From: an uncultured Bacteroidales bacterium
GTDB lineage: Bacteria; Bacteroidota; Bacteroidia; Bacteroidales; Paludibacteraceae
Assembly: GCA_945921355.1 (NCBI GenBank)
Contig: CAMEKM010000004.1
Span: 6,305 to 70,304, forward strand
DNA: 64,000 nucleotides
Direction of reading: 5' to 3'
The stretch's first letter is position 1; each line of letters starts with the position of its first letter. Under the pieces are notes generated by a model. It made no database searches, had not been told where the DNA came from, and saw only the letters and a program-made list of their open reading frames with translations. The position numbers were made by a program, and so were the translations under genes. Positions 40,312 to 48,158 of this stretch are shown piece after piece.

Positions 40312-40420
40312 CGTTTAACGTTTTAATGAGTTAGTGTTTAGTGATTCGCTCACTCGTTAATTCCTTCATTCGATCATTCGATAATTCGCTCATTCGTTAA
40401 CTCCTTCACTCGGTCATTAG
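40312..40420 (+). repeat. octamer-periodic tract (TCNTTMAN)n, left copy R1 of the direct repeat bracketing the island
   Basis: AATGAGTTAGTGTTTAGTGATTCGCTCACTCGTTAATTCC... aligns with 50090-50210. Confidence 0.8.
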
Positions 40421-40468
40421 TCGGTGATGAGGAGGTGGTTGATTGGTAGCAAGAAGGTTGTAAAGTTA

Positions 40469-41740
40469 TCAAATATCATTATTCTCACTTAACAAACGTT
40501 TCAGCGAATCTATATCTGGCAAGGCTCGACGTAATTCCTCTGGCATCTCCGCTGATGTATGATACTTAGCCACTCCCATCGGACTATCATAACGTTGGAT
40601 AACATACTCTACATAACTCTTGTCCATATCTTGGCACAAAACGATGCCAATACTCGGATTCTCGTTTGGCTTACGAACCTCATCATCCAATATTTGCAGA
40701 TAAGTTTGCAACTGTCCCAAATAAATCGGCTTAAACTCTCCCAGTTTCAATTCCACAGCGACTAAACACATCAACTCGCGATTATAGAACAATAAATCCA
40801 CAAAATAATCCTTACCAAATTTCTCCAAGTGATATTGATTGCCTACAAATGTAAAATCCTTACCAAACATCATAATGAAGTTCTTCACATTTTGCACAAT
40901 CGCATTCTCCACAACTCTCTCATCCATATCAGCCGCATCACGTACCCCTAACTCTTCCACATTCATATAATCCAACAGATACTCATCCTTAAACATCTCA
41001 ATTGCTTTTAACGCTTGAACACGTTTGGGAAAGGTCGCTAAGAAGTTATTAGGCATCTTAGCTTGATGATGAAACAAATCTTGCTTTAAACAATCGCGTA
41101 ATTTGTATTTATCCCACTTATTCAGTGCTGCTTGGCGAATATAAAAGAGACGTTCCTCTTGTGTCTTGGTTTGAGTCAATATTTCAGTATGATGAGTAAA
41201 ACTAATAGATAAAAAAGCATGAGCGATTTCTACATCAAACATTTCACTGGAAAAATCAAGACGCGTAATAGATGTCAGCAATTTAGTCGCCATCGGCGAC
41301 TCGTTTTCGCTAGCCGTTGGCTGGAAAATTTCTTCTACATTCAATTTTGCAGCCGGCGGCTGCAAAATTGACATCTCACTTATTTTTGCAGCCGCTGGCT
41401 GCAAAAATGGAGTATATTCATTCTCATCAACCAATAGTCGTTGATGTACATGATTGCACCAAACTTCATAGAACTGACGCATATAACGAATACTACGTTC
41501 GCTAAATCCCTTGAGACCTGGCAATTCTTTTCGCAGTTGCTCGCTAATAGCCTTAATAGCACCACTTCCCCACTTCTGAGTTCGTGACTCTTCAGATATA
41601 TATCGACCTACGGAATAATACAAAGCCAAAACATCAGAATTCACATTGCGAATTGTACGAGCTTGACTCTGCAAAATTGCAGTTTTGATAGTTGTTACAG
41701 CCCTTGATATAGAGAGCAAAGTATTATCGTTTTCCATCAT
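40469..41740 (-). CDS. YhcG/DUF1016 family PD-(D/E)xK nuclease-like protein
   Basis: DUF1016 N-terminal pattern (SERSIRYMRQFY) and a C-terminal nuclease-like core (VDLLFYNREL..VAVELK). An internal 3x repeat lies at 41308-41407. Confidence 0.8.
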   Translation of the reverse strand: MMENDNTLLSISRAVTTIKTAILQSQARTIRNVNSDVLALYYSVGRYISEESRTQKWGSGAIKAISEQLRKELPGLKGFSERSIRYMRQFYEVWCNHVHQRLLVDENEYTPFLQPAAAKISEMSILQPPAAKLNVEEIFQPTASENESPMATKLLTSITRLDFSSEMFDVEIAHAFLSISFTHHTEILTQTKTQEERLFYIRQAALNKWDKYKLRDCLKQDLFHHQAKMPNNFLATFPKRVQALKAIEMFKDEYLLDYMNVEELGVRDAADMDERVVENAIVQNVKNFIMMFGKDFTFVGNQYHLEKFGKDYFVDLLFYNRELMCLVAVELKLGEFKPIYLGQLQTYLQILDDEVRKPNENPSIGIVLCQDMDKSYVEYVIQRYDSPMGVAKYHTSAEMPEELRRALPDIDSLKRLLSENNDI

Positions 41741-41797: not shown

Positions 41798-41809
41798 TTA
41801 CTCTCTCGC

Positions 41810-42052
41810 TCACCAGGCGGTAATGACACCATGCTGAGTGGTGTGTGCAAAATTTGCATATACCATATTTTTATCTAGTTCTCCCTCTGCAAAAAAATTG
41901 CTTATATGCCTTCCAATAGCCGTTCTATCTCGTTCAAACAATTGAGCCATTTGTTCCTGCGTAATCCACACAGTTTCCCCATCAAGCCGGACATCAAGTT
42001 GAGTTATTCCGTCTTGCGTTTGATAGATTACTATTTCTCCTTTATCTTCCAT
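41810..42052 (-). pseudogene. RhuM-family virulence/Fic-associated protein, N-terminal fragment only
   Basis: The 80 aa (IVIYQTQDGITQLDVRLDGETVWITQEQMAQLF.RDRTAIGRHI) match a RhuM N-terminus. The ORF stops where the DUF1016 promoter module begins. Confidence 0.6.
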
Positions 42053-42127
42053 TATTTCTTCGTTAAATCATTCACTTTCTTCTCTCGCTTCTCTCTCGGT
42101 GATGAGTCGGTAAAGCTTTATCAATTA

Positions 42128-42218
42128 TTTTACTAGTTGTTTTACTAGTTATTTACCAGTTTATATACTAGTTAAGTCTTTGCTTTACTAGTTATTTTAC
42201 TAGTCATTTTCACTAATT
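42128..42218. repeat. iteron-like array: 7 copies of TTTACTAGT(T) with ~12-bp phasing
   Basis: ACTAGT cores (or one-mismatch variants) start at 42132, 42144, 42155, 42167, 42187, 42199 and 42212. Confidence 0.85.
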
Positions 42219-42351: not shown

Positions 42352-43668
42352 CTATAAATCTAACATCATATCTTTTGTAAAGGATAGCATGTATTCATTA
42401 AACTCATCATTTGTTATAAGATGTTCCATCATCTTCCAGAGCATTTCATCTGAAGTGCGACTAAAAGTATTATTGTTGTATACAGAACCTTGTGCTGCAA
42501 TGATAAAATTATATTTACTTAAATGCCTCACTCTCAATTCTGCTTTATTTGAGGTACTTACAATTTTTCCCCTAATTAATGCATGACCATCATCATACTC
42601 TTGACGCGTAATCAATCTATTGCAGAAACGATTACGTTTAAATATCGCATATTCTTCAGAGATATGTTCTAAAATACCATCTTTATACAAATTTCGTTGT
42701 ACTGCGCATTGAGTTTTATACAATCCAGTTGGACTATCTGGCATACATTCAACATATACGTATTGATTATAATATCGAGCAGTAGATGAATACACAACAA
42801 TTCTTTTTATAATAATTTCGTCGCTCCCCATTAAATATTTATTTCCTTTAAGATGTTTGAATTTATCAATGTTGCATGCACTGCCACATCTAAACCACCA
42901 TATAGGGTGAGTCGAATTATGCAACCCTTCTATGGACTGAAAATATAATGGCTGTTCTAATAAAGTAGTTAATGCTCGCTTGATATCCTTTTCTCTTGTA
43001 TATTCTTTCAATCCTCTAAGCCCAGGAAAGGCCTTTCCTATTCGAACATTAAACAATGTTGTGGAATCTTGTACGGCTTTGGGAATAATAGATGGTTTAT
43101 AAAAGTATTTAATTTTTAAATCCTCTACAAAAGAATGAAATTTCTCATACACAGAAGACTGAGGAGTACGATGTTTTCCATTCTTTCTTATTTCCTCAAT
43201 TACTTCCAGAATTGGCTGAGCAAGTTCACATTTAGAGCTATTAAATTGATAGACACGCTTATGATTAATATCGAATGGCAAGTCATTTATGTTCCAACTG
43301 CCTTGATGTGCAACAAGAATGATGTATCTATTTCCAACGGCGGACATCGCATACCCTAATTCCAATAACACATTAGGATTTGTAATCTCTTTATTTTGAG
43401 AACTACCATTCCCTATAAATTTATTAAAAGCTATAATAGGTGTTAGATCACAAATAAAGACATCACACGAATCTATTTTTTGTAAAATGCTGTGATCTAT
43501 TGCAGGCATTCCTGATTCTCCTAACGTAGAATGATCAATCACAACTTCATATCCATAAGATGATAGAAGTTCTTTTTTAGCCGACTCCAAAGCCGACTCT
43601 ATCAATTGTTTCTCTTTGTTCTGCGTATCAGATTGCCAAGAAAAGAATATTTTAAATTGTTTTTTCAT
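42352..43668 (-). CDS. TIR/nucleoside-2-deoxyribosyltransferase-like N-terminal module fused to an unassigned ~290-aa C-terminal region
   Basis: KIFFSWQSD, CDVFICDLTP, NPNVLLELGYA and LPFD motifs lie in residues 1-150. The remainder has no recognisable motif. Confidence 0.6.
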   Translation of the reverse strand: MKKQFKIFFSWQSDTQNKEKQLIESALESAKKELLSSYGYEVVIDHSTLGESGMPAIDHSILQKIDSCDVFICDLTPIIAFNKFIGNGSSQNKEITNPNVLLELGYAMSAVGNRYIILVAHQGSWNINDLPFDINHKRVYQFNSSKCELAQPILEVIEEIRKNGKHRTPQSSVYEKFHSFVEDLKIKYFYKPSIIPKAVQDSTTLFNVRIGKAFPGLRGLKEYTREKDIKRALTTLLEQPLYFQSIEGLHNSTHPIWWFRCGSACNIDKFKHLKGNKYLMGSDEIIIKRIVVYSSTARYYNQYVYVECMPDSPTGLYKTQCAVQRNLYKDGILEHISEEYAIFKRNRFCNRLITRQEYDDGHALIRGKIVSTSNKAELRVRHLSKYNFIIAAQGSVYNNNTFSRTSDEMLWKMMEHLITNDEFNEYMLSFTKDMMLDL

Positions 43669-43674
43669 ACAAGC

Positions 43675-44667
43675 CTATATGCGATTGTTTTTGACAAGGC
43701 GCCAATAATACTTACCAATAGGAGTTAAACGGCAAGACTTAGATTCCATAGCAGCAAAATACATAAAAGGAGCGCCAACTGGTTCGATGAAACCTATTTT
43801 TTGCAATTCTTGCAAGCACTTAAATTTCTTTATGTTTTCCGCATTAGCATATGGTTCTATGTATTTATGCTCTACTGTTGGGCTGTTCGTATCCTCATAT
43901 GAAGGATCCAAGGCATACTCCTTGTCCTGAGTTTCAAATAAAGCAGTAAGTTGATGAATCGTTTCATTTGGAACTCTAGGTGTCACATTTCGAATGGCTA
44001 CAAATTCCGACACATTCGTCTTAAATATAGGCCTTTGATCCCAAGCCCCTAACGAGCGATCAATATAAGCATATATTCCTCCCATTGTGATATTACCACT
44101 GAAGTCGGCAGCTTCTCCACTTAGAGCCGTTGTTAACAACTCTGTAAATATACCATGGCCACCCATTTCTACAGCTGATTCATCATCACGACATGCAGTA
44201 AGAATGGAAACTCCTGATGCCAATACGCTTGTCACAGCATCCACATCATTGGCCCCGAGTAAACCTGAGTGACAACAATCTAAAATCAAAACTTTGTGCT
44301 TAGCCTTTGAGTGATTTGCAATATCCATCAGATAATCCATCTTTATCCCTAATTTGGAATAATCTTTATTTACAGTTGCTATGTCAACATCTTGGGGGAA
44401 TACTAATTGTCCTCCATTGGCATCAACATATCCATGACCAGAAAAATAGAATAATGCTATATCTGCATCATCATGAAAGAGGTGTTCTATATATCCCTTT
44501 GCGTCTTCACTACGTTGCAAATCCGGCAATAGCATTATATCAAAGTTCTTTGAATTATCTTCGTTTCGTTCTAATACCGAAGCCAGCGCATTGATATCTT
44601 CAATGCATCCATGCAATTCACTACCGGCTGGGTAGTTATTTATACCTATTAAAAGTGCTCTTCTCAT
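43675..44667 (-). CDS. caspase-like (peptidase C14) protease with a ~100-aa C-terminal extension
   Basis: ALLIGINNY, FYFSGHGY (His78) and LILDCCHSG (Cys131/132) motifs. Confidence 0.85.
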   Translation of the reverse strand: MRRALLIGINNYPAGSELHGCIEDINALASVLERNEDNSKNFDIMLLPDLQRSEDAKGYIEHLFHDDADIALFYFSGHGYVDANGGQLVFPQDVDIATVNKDYSKLGIKMDYLMDIANHSKAKHKVLILDCCHSGLLGANDVDAVTSVLASGVSILTACRDDESAVEMGGHGIFTELLTTALSGEAADFSGNITMGGIYAYIDRSLGAWDQRPIFKTNVSEFVAIRNVTPRVPNETIHQLTALFETQDKEYALDPSYEDTNSPTVEHKYIEPYANAENIKKFKCLQELQKIGFIEPVGAPFMYFAAMESKSCRLTPIGKYYWRLVKNNRI

Positions 44668-44669
44668 GA

Positions 44670-45074
44670 TTATTTTGCCAAATTACGTATTGCTTGAACG
44701 ATAGATTCTGTATTCCATTTCACAATATCATCTGCTCTTTCTTGAATAACACGCGAGACATGCTCTTGTCCCCACGGAATGACACCTAAAACAGGGATAT
44801 TATTTTCAATAGCCGTATCAAGTTCCCATTGCATCCACTCGCTATACGATGCATATACTCCGGCAAGACCGATTACTACATCAGCCTTTTCAATTAAAGG
44901 CCTTACACATGCATGTAAATAATATACATTATCCGAATTAAATTTATTTTCTGGAGTTACTTCCAAAAAATCTACCTTAAAATAGCCACGCTCCTCCAGC
45001 AGTGCCCTAAGACTCTCTAAATCATCCAAATGATCCCATGAATGACTAATGAAAAGATTATAAGTTTTTGTCAT
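44670..45074 (-). CDS. TIR-like domain protein (DUF1863/ThsB type)
   Basis: 134 aa with NLFISHSWDH (beta1) and SEWMQWELDTAI (conserved Glu84). Confidence 0.75.
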   Translation of the reverse strand: MTKTYNLFISHSWDHLDDLESLRALLEERGYFKVDFLEVTPENKFNSDNVYYLHACVRPLIEKADVVIGLAGVYASYSEWMQWELDTAIENNIPVLGVIPWGQEHVSRVIQERADDIVKWNTESIVQAIRNLAK

Positions 45075-45184
45075 ATAAATTAAGTTTAAATGTTGATTTT
45101 GTTTTAATTATTATCCACCCCCGAATCTCTCCCATAAGCGAGTCGTGTTTGTCTCTCGCTCTTCTCTCGGTCATCTCTCGGTGG

Positions 45185-46378
45185 TTACTTATTTGCTTTC
45201 ATCAGTCGTTTTGTTTCACGCAGCTCTTTTTGCAGGAGTTCCATGCGTTCCTTCAGTTGCTCTTGCGTCGGAAGCATGTCCTTGATGCGTACATTATTAT
45301 ATGTTGCCACTCCCATCGGAGTGCTGATGCCACGGAACGACCATTGTACATCGGCTTTATTCATATCCGAACAAATGAGCAAGCCTATCGTCGGATTATC
45401 ATCCTCTGCTTTCAACAAGTCATCTACTGCATTGACGTAAAAATTCAGTTTTCCGGCAAACTCCGGTTCAAACGCTTTGGCTTTCAGTTCGCACACTATA
45501 TAGCAACGCAAACGGATATGATAGAAAAGCAAATCAATCTTGCGTGTAGTATCTCCGGCAATCAGTTCTTTCTGTCTTCCTATAAACGCAAAGCCGGTTC
45601 CGAGTTCCAACAAAAGATCCGTTACACTTTTGCTCAATGCTTCTTCTAACTCCTGCTCATCGTAAATCTCATGCTTCACGGTTGCAAAGCCAAAGTCATA
45701 ATTCTCCTTGAGTACTTCTTGCGCCAATTTGCTCTGCAATGCGGGCATGTGCTCGGCGAAGTTATTGAGAATCTTTCCTTGATGCTCATATAGATTAGCT
45801 TTGATGCAGTTCACCAGCGCCGCACGACTCATACCCTGCTCTATCGTCTTTCCTACATAGAAGAGCGCTTCATCAACTGATTTGCATTTGGAAATAATAG
45901 CAATATGATGTCCCCATGGAACGTATGCAAAAGAAGACGGAAATTCTCCAACGGGTTGCTGGAGTTTTTGAGAATCAATTTCTGCAACAGTTTGTTGCAG
46001 TTTTGAACTTAAAATTTCTCCAACAACTTGTTGGAGTTTTGTATCCTCCTGATAATAAAACAGATACCACTGTTTCATATACCATAGATTCGTAGTCGAG
46101 AAACCTTCTGCATTCGGGAACTCACGCTGGAGATCAAGGCTCACTTGCTCCACCACACCTGCGCCCCAACGCTCTTCGGCTTTCTTTTGCACTAAATCGC
46201 GTCCCAGTTCCCAATTGAAGAGCAACTTCTCTGCATTTACACGCACAGAAGCCTTCACTTGCGCCGAACGATACCGATGTTTCAACTCGGCAATCCATTC
46301 CGCGTAATCCGTATCAATGCGTATGTCGTGAGATTTCACGATACGCGGTTGCTTTGATATTTCATTTTCTTCTATCAT
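45185..46378 (-). CDS. YhcG/DUF1016 family PD-(D/E)xK nuclease-like protein
   Basis: STTNLWYMKQWY, VPWGHH and IDLLFYHIRLRCYIVCELK motifs. An internal 3x palindromic repeat lies at 45941-46040. Confidence 0.8.
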   Translation of the reverse strand: MIEENEISKQPRIVKSHDIRIDTDYAEWIAELKHRYRSAQVKASVRVNAEKLLFNWELGRDLVQKKAEERWGAGVVEQVSLDLQREFPNAEGFSTTNLWYMKQWYLFYYQEDTKLQQVVGEILSSKLQQTVAEIDSQKLQQPVGEFPSSFAYVPWGHHIAIISKCKSVDEALFYVGKTIEQGMSRAALVNCIKANLYEHQGKILNNFAEHMPALQSKLAQEVLKENYDFGFATVKHEIYDEQELEEALSKSVTDLLLELGTGFAFIGRQKELIAGDTTRKIDLLFYHIRLRCYIVCELKAKAFEPEFAGKLNFYVNAVDDLLKAEDDNPTIGLLICSDMNKADVQWSFRGISTPMGVATYNNVRIKDMLPTQEQLKERMELLQKELRETKRLMKANK

Positions 46379-46467
46379 TTTCTAAATTTGTCTCCCGGTC
46401 ATCTCCCGCTCATCGGTCGGTGAATATTTCTAAATGTTTACCTCTATCCTGACCAAGACAACAGAAG

Positions 46468-47952
46468 TCACATTATTAATCTAGCCTCATCGGGTTCCTT
46501 ATAGGCATTCGTTATTGTTAAATACTCATGAGCCTCTTCAAAACTACCACAAGGAATGCGCCCTGCATATTGTTGCATCTTATCTAAAACTTGTACAAGC
46601 GTAGAGATATCTCTTTGGTGACTAAATTTCTTCAAAGCTAATATATAATCATCGCGAAACACATTTGGAATGATTACTTTCGATTGACGCTGACTAACCA
46701 ACTCGGCATTCATCATAATGCGTGCCATACGCCCGTTACCATCATCAAATGGATGCACCTCAGCTATTATCACATGCATCATGATGGCTCGTGCCATCGG
46801 ATGAGTTAATGCATTATACAATCCGAATGCCTTCAACAATGTTCCTCTGACATATTCATAATCCACGAAATACGTCTCGCCGGCATGATTATTCCGCATT
46901 TTGAATAATCCCGGGTTCTTCGTTTGGCGAGCTTCTAATAATATCTTATGACGAGCCTGAAGCATTTGTAACAGTTCCTCCGCTGCTTGCGGAATACGCT
47001 GCATCTCTCTCTTATTAGCCGCGACAAAGTATGTCCCTAATATATCATGTGAGTCATCACGACGAGAAGGCATCGGACGTCCAGTCGAAATAATCGTCCG
47101 CGCATCCTCAATGGTAAATTCTGTTCCTTCGATATAATTGGAAAAATAACTCTCGAAAAATGCAAAATTTCTAAACGCTTTATCTTCCCACTGTACATTT
47201 TCTCGATAAGCAAACTCATAATTAGTCAAAAAGGCGAACGCTTTTTGAAACAAATCCATACGTTCCGCATCATAGGGTTCACCCATAGCACGCGCGATAG
47301 TAAGAGGAGAACGCAAAATGGATGAAGTGTGAGTCGTTAATATCGCACTAATGAGTTGGGATAGTTTTGCAAACTCCTTTTGGAATCCAAGTCTTTCAGC
47401 GGTCTCCCTTGCTTCATCACGCAATACATTCAATGCAGTTTCGCCATTGACTCGCACTATCTTCTCTAATTTCTCTTCAATCTGTTGCTGCCCCAAACAC
47501 TTATCTGCTCCGCCAATATTCTTAGATGCTTGCATATTTTCCAAAAAAGCGCGTGTCTGATGTGACATATATAAGCCATCTATGAACGGCCGATCATTGG
47601 CATCAACTTGCGGACCTTCTAATAAATGAACGGTAACTCCCGGTAGAATTATCTTTCTGGAATATTTATAGGTGAGAAATATATCACCTGAAGAGGTTGG
47701 CATACATTCAAATGCCGTGCGGTGACTTAAAATTGCCCCAGGATACAATCTGCCAAGTATAGAGAAAATGTTTCTCCGCACGATGTCCTCTCCTTTTGCC
47801 TCAAAATTAGTTGTGTATATCTTCGGGGCAATACGACGTATCTTTCCTTGCTTGAGAAGCTTGGAAATAGCATCTGAGGATTTCTTATCCGTTCCGGCAA
47901 ACATTACCTCATGTAATACTTGATAAGCAATATCTTCGGGATTTTTTTTCAT
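46468..47952 (-). CDS. Fic family protein (class II-like, internal inhibitory motif) with an extra N-terminal domain
   Basis: Fic motif HPFDDGNGRMAR. An (S/T)xxxE(G/N) motif, SNYIEG, lies upstream of it. Confidence 0.88.
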   Translation of the reverse strand: MKKNPEDIAYQVLHEVMFAGTDKKSSDAISKLLKQGKIRRIAPKIYTTNFEAKGEDIVRRNIFSILGRLYPGAILSHRTAFECMPTSSGDIFLTYKYSRKIILPGVTVHLLEGPQVDANDRPFIDGLYMSHQTRAFLENMQASKNIGGADKCLGQQQIEEKLEKIVRVNGETALNVLRDEARETAERLGFQKEFAKLSQLISAILTTHTSSILRSPLTIARAMGEPYDAERMDLFQKAFAFLTNYEFAYRENVQWEDKAFRNFAFFESYFSNYIEGTEFTIEDARTIISTGRPMPSRRDDSHDILGTYFVAANKREMQRIPQAAEELLQMLQARHKILLEARQTKNPGLFKMRNNHAGETYFVDYEYVRGTLLKAFGLYNALTHPMARAIMMHVIIAEVHPFDDGNGRMARIMMNAELVSQRQSKVIIPNVFRDDYILALKKFSHQRDISTLVQVLDKMQQYAGRIPCGSFEEAHEYLTITNAYKEPDEARLIM

Positions 47953-48087: not shown

Positions 48088-48146
48088 ATTAATTTCTCGC
48101 TCTTCCCTCGGTCATCTCCCGCTCATCGGTTGGTGATGAGTCGGTA
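48088..48146 (+). repeat. island junction repeat J5 (longest copy)
   Basis: TCTCGCTCTTCCCTCGGTCATCTCCCGCTCATCGGTTGGTGATGAGTCGGTAAA. Partial copies lie at 40405-40440, 42085-42116, 45150-45186 and 46390-46425. Confidence 0.8.
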
Positions 48147-48158
48147 AATAAAGTGTTT

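Follow-up and report, generated by a model that had tools for sequence, protein, structure and literature searches.

Polypeptides that join a swappable effector to a constant sensor are known from Avs, SpbK, Swarozyc, and CapRel. The TIR effectors of Pycsar and CBASS (PycTIR; Cap12 TIR-STING and TIR-SAVED) always adjoin a cyclase and carry known nucleotide-binding domains. In the Swarozyc protein KpSwz, a DUF4062 TIR-like NADase is followed by a helical stalk and a portal-binding auxiliary domain whose fold is of the HTH (helix-turn-helix)/winged-helix type (bioRxiv 10.64898/2026.05.01.722283). Type IV Thoeris has been published as a two-gene system consisting of the TIR protein ThsB and the caspase-like ThsE (Rousset et al., bioRxiv 10.1101/2024.10.24.620036), and its caspase-like effector cuts after Arg on binding N7-cADPR (bioRxiv 10.1101/2024.10.24.620036). 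Effector modules gated by proteases include MBL, alpha/beta-hydrolase, and Pepco, as well as EACC1 (bioRxiv 10.1101/2025.11.14.688446). Here we describe a 438-amino acid (aa) protein (P0001) encoded at 42352..43668 (-) in a 64,000-nucleotide (nt) stretch, hereafter the window, from an uncultured Bacteroidales bacterium of the family Paludibacteraceae (assembly GCA_945921355.1, contig CAMEKM010000004.1, positions 6,305 to 70,304). As judged from the open reading frame (ORF) and its translation, the protein consists of a TIR-like domain, a linker, and a C-terminal domain (CTD), and its gene is referred to below as the TIR-CTD gene.

The CTD forms a discrete and conserved domain that lacks any annotation. 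Proteins of such a design are known, but the CTD itself apparently is not, being absent from Pfam, NCBIfam, PADLOC, and the PDB. The chances are slightly better than even that the 438-aa protein is an autonomous defense protein that holds effector and sensor in a single polypeptide. Under this reading, the CTD would recognize an infection cue, and recognition of the trigger would change the oligomeric state of the protein and so switch on the effector, with the two-helix linker acting as a stalk that may transmit the change. The TIR-like domain would then degrade NAD+ or a related nucleotide through residue E103, such that the infected cell would stop growing and the infection would be aborted. 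In this scheme, what we infer is that the protein is enzymatically active, what kind of trigger it has, that oligomerization activates it, and that it confers defense.

P0001 has 291 full-length homologs that keep the same architecture at 38-77% identity, which indicates that the gene is under selection. Nearly all of them come from gut or rumen metagenomes and from Prevotella/Bacteroidales metagenome-assembled genomes (MAGs), and every one is unnamed or labeled "hypothetical." In an alignment of P0001 with 26 homologs, residues 1-165 are conserved, residues 166-195 are variable, and residues 196-438 are strongly conserved. The initial annotation had drawn attention to window positions 42352-43221, which comprise the codons for residues 150-438 and the stop codon, as a C-terminal region of about 290 aa that could be assigned to no family. 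This was borne out, as no Pfam, NCBIfam, or PADLOC model matched the region, and the three peptides quoted from it are found at residues 254-270, 303-324, and 381-400. The N-terminus is TIR-like, as had been proposed. However, the boundary placed at residue 150 needs adjustment: the conserved CTD begins at about residue 196, and residues 150-195 form two helices and a poorly conserved loop. The description of the region as rich in Cys, Trp, and Tyr was overstated, given that these residues make up 2.1, 1.2, and 6.2% of the CTD, respectively, and that Cys is not conserved in the family.

The effector-sensor reading draws on an exchange of domains on both sides of the linker. A CTD profile, built from ten CTDs translated from the fetched loci, was searched against 1.84 billion representative proteins and matched 714 protein clusters at E<=1e-3, of which 399 remain at E<=1e-30. 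In every case the matched segment extends to the C-terminus, and between 0 and about 370 residues stand in front of it. Among the best 147 representatives, these N-terminal parts fall into 35 groups without detectable mutual similarity, the largest of which (34 of the 147) carries two to four transmembrane (TM) helices. The recognizable fusion partners are all conflict-system domains, namely TIR_2, CAP12-type TIR, DUF4062, conflict-system Pol-beta nucleotidyltransferase (NTase; PF20697), protein kinase, the adaptor EAD11, GGDEF, caspase, CHAT, and SEFIR/TIR; several large N-termini have no annotation. PADLOC matches in the family are confined to the N-terminal parts. On a rough FastTree phylogeny of the CTD, the partner types are interleaved, with 68 changes, where at least 34 would be needed and shuffling gives 97 on average. 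The N-terminal domain of the window protein in turn fronts other C-termini (L013-L030) in Lachnospiraceae, Clostridia, and Bacteroidales genomes. For example, in a rumen Bacteroidales MAG (L013:5989-8481) the same TIR-like domain is fused to a NACHT/STAND NTPase, which gives an 830-aa protein with an Avs-like architecture. The two halves therefore shuffle independently, as would be expected of a variable effector with a constant sensor or regulator. Because the swapping runs both ways, the CTD is taken as the constant sensing/activating module and the TIR-like domain as the effector. A phage sensor was one of two roles that the initial annotation had raised for the C-terminal region, with a profile search for N-terminal partners as the check. 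The swapping signature is present, and the exchange of at least a dozen effector, signaling, or adaptor domains on a constant CTD fits that role.

Swarozyc is the nearest worked example for such a protein. In both cases, one gene encodes an N-terminal TIR-like hydrolase that a helical linker joins to a module without enzymatic activity at the C-terminus; for P0001, both assignments are predictions. Some CTD-family members are closer still, as they carry an N-terminus with a KpSwz-like DUF4062 domain and stalk. One such protein (P0165) matches KpSwz over the TIR-like domain and stalk only (P0165 residues 2-194, KpSwz residues 3-195, 1.4e-23), and its CTD therefore occupies the place of the portal-binding auxiliary domain. 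There are also differences. The N-terminus of P0001 is of the CAP12/Pycsar type without a PF13271 match, whereas PF13271 is present in P0165 and P0144. The CTD has no sequence match to KpSwz residues 196-326, and KpSwz chains are absent from the fold-search lists, although a distant similarity could escape such searches. Moreover, the predicted fold of the CTD is rich in beta-strands, in contrast to the HTH/winged-helix auxiliary domain of KpSwz.

The autonomy of the TIR-CTD protein is suggested by its diverse neighbors and by the sparse distribution of the domain. Gene neighborhoods were compared across loci with a homolog, 10 of them from genomes and 80 from metagenomes (about 85 related loci); there is some redundancy among the metagenome loci, many of which break off upstream, and the contexts of other fusion types are thinly sampled. 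The neighbors form 20 upstream and 18 downstream clusters, which include AlbA_2/Schlafen-HATPase_c_4-HTH, AAA ATPase, T5orf172, PIN, HNH, YhcG, ABC-3C CTD7, and TIR_2. The CTD was found in only two of 400 other genomes sampled from the phylum, and the genome of the window has a single copy. The neighborhoods are variable and mostly of a defense type. Upstream, the 19 kinds of neighbor other than a caspase are mostly defense or polysaccharide genes, and several homologs are flanked by genes for sugar transferases, pyruvyl transferase, hexapeptide transferases, and glycosyltransferases. Such positions would suit a role outside defense, either as an accessory to capsule/O-antigen loci or as a selfish gene carried in a cassette. 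Nevertheless, every recognizable fusion partner is a conflict-system domain, the other neighbors are defense genes, and the distribution is sparse and patchy, which makes a non-defense role hardly probable at all. The loci in which TIR-CTD homologs occur amid polysaccharide-synthesis genes (hexapeptide transferase, Bac_transf, PS_pyruv_trans, and GT1/GT4) are L005, L071-L077, L058, L068, L095, L098, L100, L101, and L103. Cassettes of this kind may preferentially insert into capsule/O-antigen loci in Bacteroidales.

The CTD itself (residues 196-438, 243 aa; 42355..43083 (-)) was delimited by the alignment and by AlphaFold2 models built with family alignments and is an alpha+beta domain. Its sequence motifs are STxFFxxRxxxAFPGxRG, PIWWFR, YVYVE, EEY, EYDDG, RxRxLxxYNFIIA, and SxxN. 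Structure prediction followed by a Foldseek search, as the initial annotation had suggested, produced a confident model but no clear structural neighbor. The mean predicted local distance difference test (pLDDT) score is 89.5 for residues 150-438 and 93.9 for residues 196-438 (predicted template modeling score 0.90). The CTD begins with two helices around a strand and ends in two to three helices, and its beta-strands number about fourteen, whereas residues 150-195 form two helices with a lower-confidence basic loop between them. In the sequence searches, the CTD had no match in Pfam at E<=10, in NCBIfam at E<=1, or among PDB sequences (by profile search and by whole-protein search), and PADLOC models, applied to the window protein and ten other members of the family, never matched the CTD. 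Likewise, no relative was found among the viral contigs of IMG/VR or, with Foldseek at E<=1e-3, the viral structures of BFVD, and a limited literature search found no publication that describes the domain.

Comparisons of predicted structure gave a similar picture. For the two models, Foldseek returned nothing from the PDB at E<=1e-3 (best E values of 2.9e-3 and 1.8e-2), and the best matches were scattered cupin-like chains only, with a TM-score of about 0.13. VIA-align over 48,161 PDB representatives gave a best Z of 4.1-4.2 (YojF, 1njh, over 89 aligned residues); RWD-like and HutX-like alpha+beta sandwiches came next, with Z 2-3.8. Because the best Z is lower than the typical score of unmatched models in the tool's own calibration, no fold was assigned to the CTD. 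The best score in the ESM Atlas was 0.88, which is under the usable range. SAVED, STING, SLOG, Macro, CARF, and cNMP-binding domains are absent from the Pfam and PADLOC matches and from the Foldseek and VIA-align lists, although distant kinship could escape these methods.

Across 150 diverse members of the family, the near-invariant residues of the CTD are R209, F214, P215, G216, R218, W257, R260, E284, E338, E339, D359, D360, R379, R381, N387, and N398, and Y305 is invariant. The charged or polar part of this set, tallied as four Arg, three Glu, two Asp, two Asn, and one Tyr, suggests a ligand-binding or catalytic pocket. One could therefore regard the CTD as an enzyme or toxin in its own right, for instance a metal-dependent hydrolase, with N-terminal domains that are additional or regulatory. 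The near-invariant E284, E338, E339, D359, D360, R379, and R381 do resemble a catalytic or metal site, and some members are almost CTD-only (e.g., P0137 and P0140). However, the constant part beside polymorphic effectors is normally a sensor or regulator, no known hydrolase fold was matched in the PDB sequence, Foldseek, and VIA-align searches, and the short members could be incomplete because their contigs are short. Taken together, an enzymatic CTD seems improbable.

The N-terminal domain (residues 1-165; 43174..43668 (-)) is TIR-like/nucleoside-deoxyribosyltransferase-like. Residues 29-130 match PF10137 (CAP12/Pycsar TIR) at 25.5 bits, a small margin over the gathering cut-off of 24.7, and the same match is carried by homologs P0011, P0021, and others. 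In the 26 homologs aligned, F8, S10, W11, Q12, D45, D69, D74, N97, N99, E103, P131, F132, D133, N135, and H136 are invariant, which corresponds to the motifs FxSWQ, D45, D69/D74, NxNVxxELG (with E103), and PFDxNH. E103, in NPNVLLELGYA, is the presumed catalytic Glu. Its counterpart in Cap12 (PDB 7un8) would be the Glu of NVVFEFG, in an alignment that is not significant (E 0.94). The linker (residues 166-195; 43084..43173 (-)), as defined by the alignment and AlphaFold2, comprises the end of a helix and a second helix, with a basic loop (KHRTPQSS) between them, and is the most variable stretch of the protein. The modeled helices span residues 151-163 and 173-189, and the loop between them has a pLDDT of about 65. 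With the Pycsar and CBASS effectors, the protein shares the PF10137 TIR subtype and a controlling second domain, and variants with TM helices occur in parallel. Unlike those effectors, the TIR-CTD gene has no cyclase beside it, and the CTD matches none of their nucleotide-binding domains.

Upstream of the TIR-CTD gene, the window contains two genes in the same orientation. The first gene of this module (44670..45074 (-)) encodes a short, 134-aa ThsB-type TIR protein (PF08937 ThsB_TIR, 3.4e-10; PADLOC ThsB, 5.6e-15), and the second (43675..44667 (-)), which lies 2 nt away, encodes a 330-aa caspase-like (C14) protease that is extended at its C-terminus by about 100 aa (PF00656, 1.3e-17; PADLOC "caspase," 3.5e-23). 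The His78/Cys131-132 dyad of the protease is intact. Thus, the adjacent short ThsB TIR and caspase-like protease with an intact dyad by which type IV Thoeris is recognized are both present, and the pair resembles the published system in the C-terminal extension of its protease and in its catalytic positions (Cys131/132 here versus C129 in the published protein; E84 versus E89). The TIR-CTD gene differs in being a third gene that is mostly found without the ThsB/caspase pair, and, in the loci compared, its product is not a conserved component of type IV Thoeris. Among 300 genomes of the same family, the window caspase has no close homolog; only proteins of about 680 aa with a caspase domain were found, at about 30% identity. 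A close "Rosetta stone" link between this caspase and the caspase domains fused to CTDs was also considered and rejected, as the identity between them is only about 25%.

Within the sample of about 85 loci, a caspase gene precedes the TIR-CTD gene only in the window and L055 and in L107/L108. In L055, the TIR-CTD protein is 76% identical and the caspase 90% identical to those of the window, the gap between the genes is 9 nt, and the contig ends upstream. In L107/L108, the CTD is 43% identical (about 43-45% overall), and a second caspase gene is followed by 72 nt and then by the TIR-CTD gene. The two lineages are polyphyletic on the TIR-CTD tree (all protein trees are quick or FastTree trees), where L107 groups with the caspase-free L109 and the L009 group. 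L107:1967-6711 (L108 is identical) holds tandem type IV Thoeris-like modules in the order ThsB, caspase, a 178-aa TIR_2 protein, ThsB, caspase, and TIR-CTD, a co-directional string with three TIR genes and two caspases. In L009:4962-8612 (also L102, L104, and L105), genes for a 340-aa TIR_2 protein, TIR-CTD, and a 437-aa HNH protein overlap by 17 and 4 nt, respectively; this string may be a Thoeris-like operon with two effectors.

These patterns bear on the other role raised in the initial annotation, that of a latent effector licensed by the caspase, in which a cut in the basic linker (RKNGKHRTPQSS) would free either the TIR-like domain or the CTD. The 6-nt spacing noted there was confirmed, as the caspase-like ORF (43675-44667, -) stops 6 nt before the ATG at 43668. 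The pair recurs in L055 and L107, and for a type IV Thoeris caspase that cuts after Arg, the linker offers R161 and R167 in the lower-confidence loop. Furthermore, protease-gated effectors are common in defense (bioRxiv 10.1101/2025.11.14.688446), and the position of the TIR-CTD gene directly after a caspase-like protease gene, in a defense context, resembles theirs. However, among the about 85 loci the adjacency is restricted to the two polyphyletic lineages, with neither conserved pairing nor co-phylogeny with the protease, and the CTD matches neither EACC1 nor any NCBIfam model. Spacing to unrelated upstream genes is often as tight (-17 to +16 nt), and the 6-nt gap is therefore no evidence of partnership. 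The linker motif KNGxHR is conserved in homologs without a nearby protease. In addition, caspase and CHAT occur as alternative N-terminal fusions of the CTD, which suggests parallel outputs rather than upstream activators. Finally, the caspase has a C-terminal domain of its own, and its published counterpart is itself a promiscuous executioner. The idea of a caspase-released effector is thus unsupported, and we consider such licensing highly improbable.

Several observations weigh against the effector-sensor reading. The PF10137 score barely exceeds its threshold. Many homologs are found in polysaccharide loci, such that a "defense island" context is not uniform. From their conservation, the near-invariant charged and polar residues of the CTD look more like a pocket for a small ligand or for catalysis than like a surface that tracks fast-evolving phage proteins. 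In three contexts (window/L055, L107/L108, and the L009 group), the TIR-CTD gene closes an operon headed by stand-alone TIR proteins. Moreover, the repeat that marks the module junctions of this island does not separate the TIR-CTD gene from the ThsB/caspase pair, which hints at a functional link. The three genes are probably one transcription unit here, because this repeat, which has an 11-nt period, is missing between them although it is found 5' of every other module of the island.

The three operon contexts and the lack of a repeat inside the trio also fit another model, in which the neighboring type IV Thoeris-like pair has the TIR-CTD protein as its second effector. The CTD would then be the receptor for a nucleotide made by ThsB (N7-cADPR or a related molecule), such that a single signal would activate the caspase-like protease together with the TIR-like hydrolase; a nucleotide pocket would accord with the conserved charged residues. 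The CTD partners (TM, TIR, and caspase/CHAT) also resemble those that accompany signal-binding domains in the effectors of CBASS, Pycsar, and Thoeris. On the other hand, about 19 other types of neighborhood have no TIR, cyclase, or other signal-making gene beside the CTD protein. The CTD is also fused to signal makers (GGDEF and conflict-system NTase), for which an upstream sensor fits better than a downstream receptor. The published type IV Thoeris has two genes (bioRxiv 10.1101/2024.10.24.620036), and the lack of likeness to SLOG, Macro, SAVED, STING, or cNMP-binding folds in the searches above provides weak evidence in the same direction. On balance, a second Thoeris effector appears unlikely. 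A related possibility, with the CTD as a new kind of receptor for a TIR-made nucleotide and its family as second-messenger-gated effectors of a class not seen before, whose fold has no match, is rather unlikely. Under the effector-sensor reading, the position of the TIR-CTD gene behind the type IV Thoeris-like pair is mainly a juxtaposition of cassettes.

The surrounding island has additional features. Copies of the junction repeat (repeat families D1/D2), which consists of 11-nt units resembling TCTCTCGGTCA on the + strand, are located at 40403-40439, 41802-41824, 42078-42114, 45149-45196, 46388-46435, and 48090-48148. They lie just 5' of the minus-strand modules WbqC-like, DUF1016a, RhuM fragment, ThsB, DUF1016b, and Fic, and none lies inside the ThsB/caspase/TIR-CTD trio. 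The copy at 45149..45196 is thus 5' of the ThsB gene, and the next one, at 42078..42114, is downstream of the trio and 5' of the RhuM-like fragment. This repeat could be a leader or promoter that the modules share, or it could mark where cassettes join. An array of TTTACTAGT-type units (family D3) with a spacing of 11-12 nt (once 20 nt) occupies 42117-42209, in the interval that separates the end of the TIR-CTD gene from the next copy of the junction repeat. The trio is bracketed by two YhcG/DUF1016 PD-(D/E)xK paralogs (40469-41740 and 45185-46378, both (-)), which match the PADLOC candidate system PDC-S02 with E values down to 1e-127; a YhcG gene is also found downstream of the TIR-CTD gene in L003, L111, and L114. 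A 494-aa Fic protein (46468-47952 (-)) matches SoFic/PDC-S04, with AbiEi models at its N-terminus.

The CTD has remained without annotation, yet it is present in at least 714 protein clusters, joined to about a dozen outputs that include four types of TIR. The recurrence of the TIR-CTD gene behind type IV Thoeris modules makes it possible to test directly whether a second effector can belong to a Thoeris system. Learning what the CTD recognizes would add a new class of sensor to bacterial immunity and would help to annotate many "hypothetical proteins" from gut and rumen Bacteroidales.

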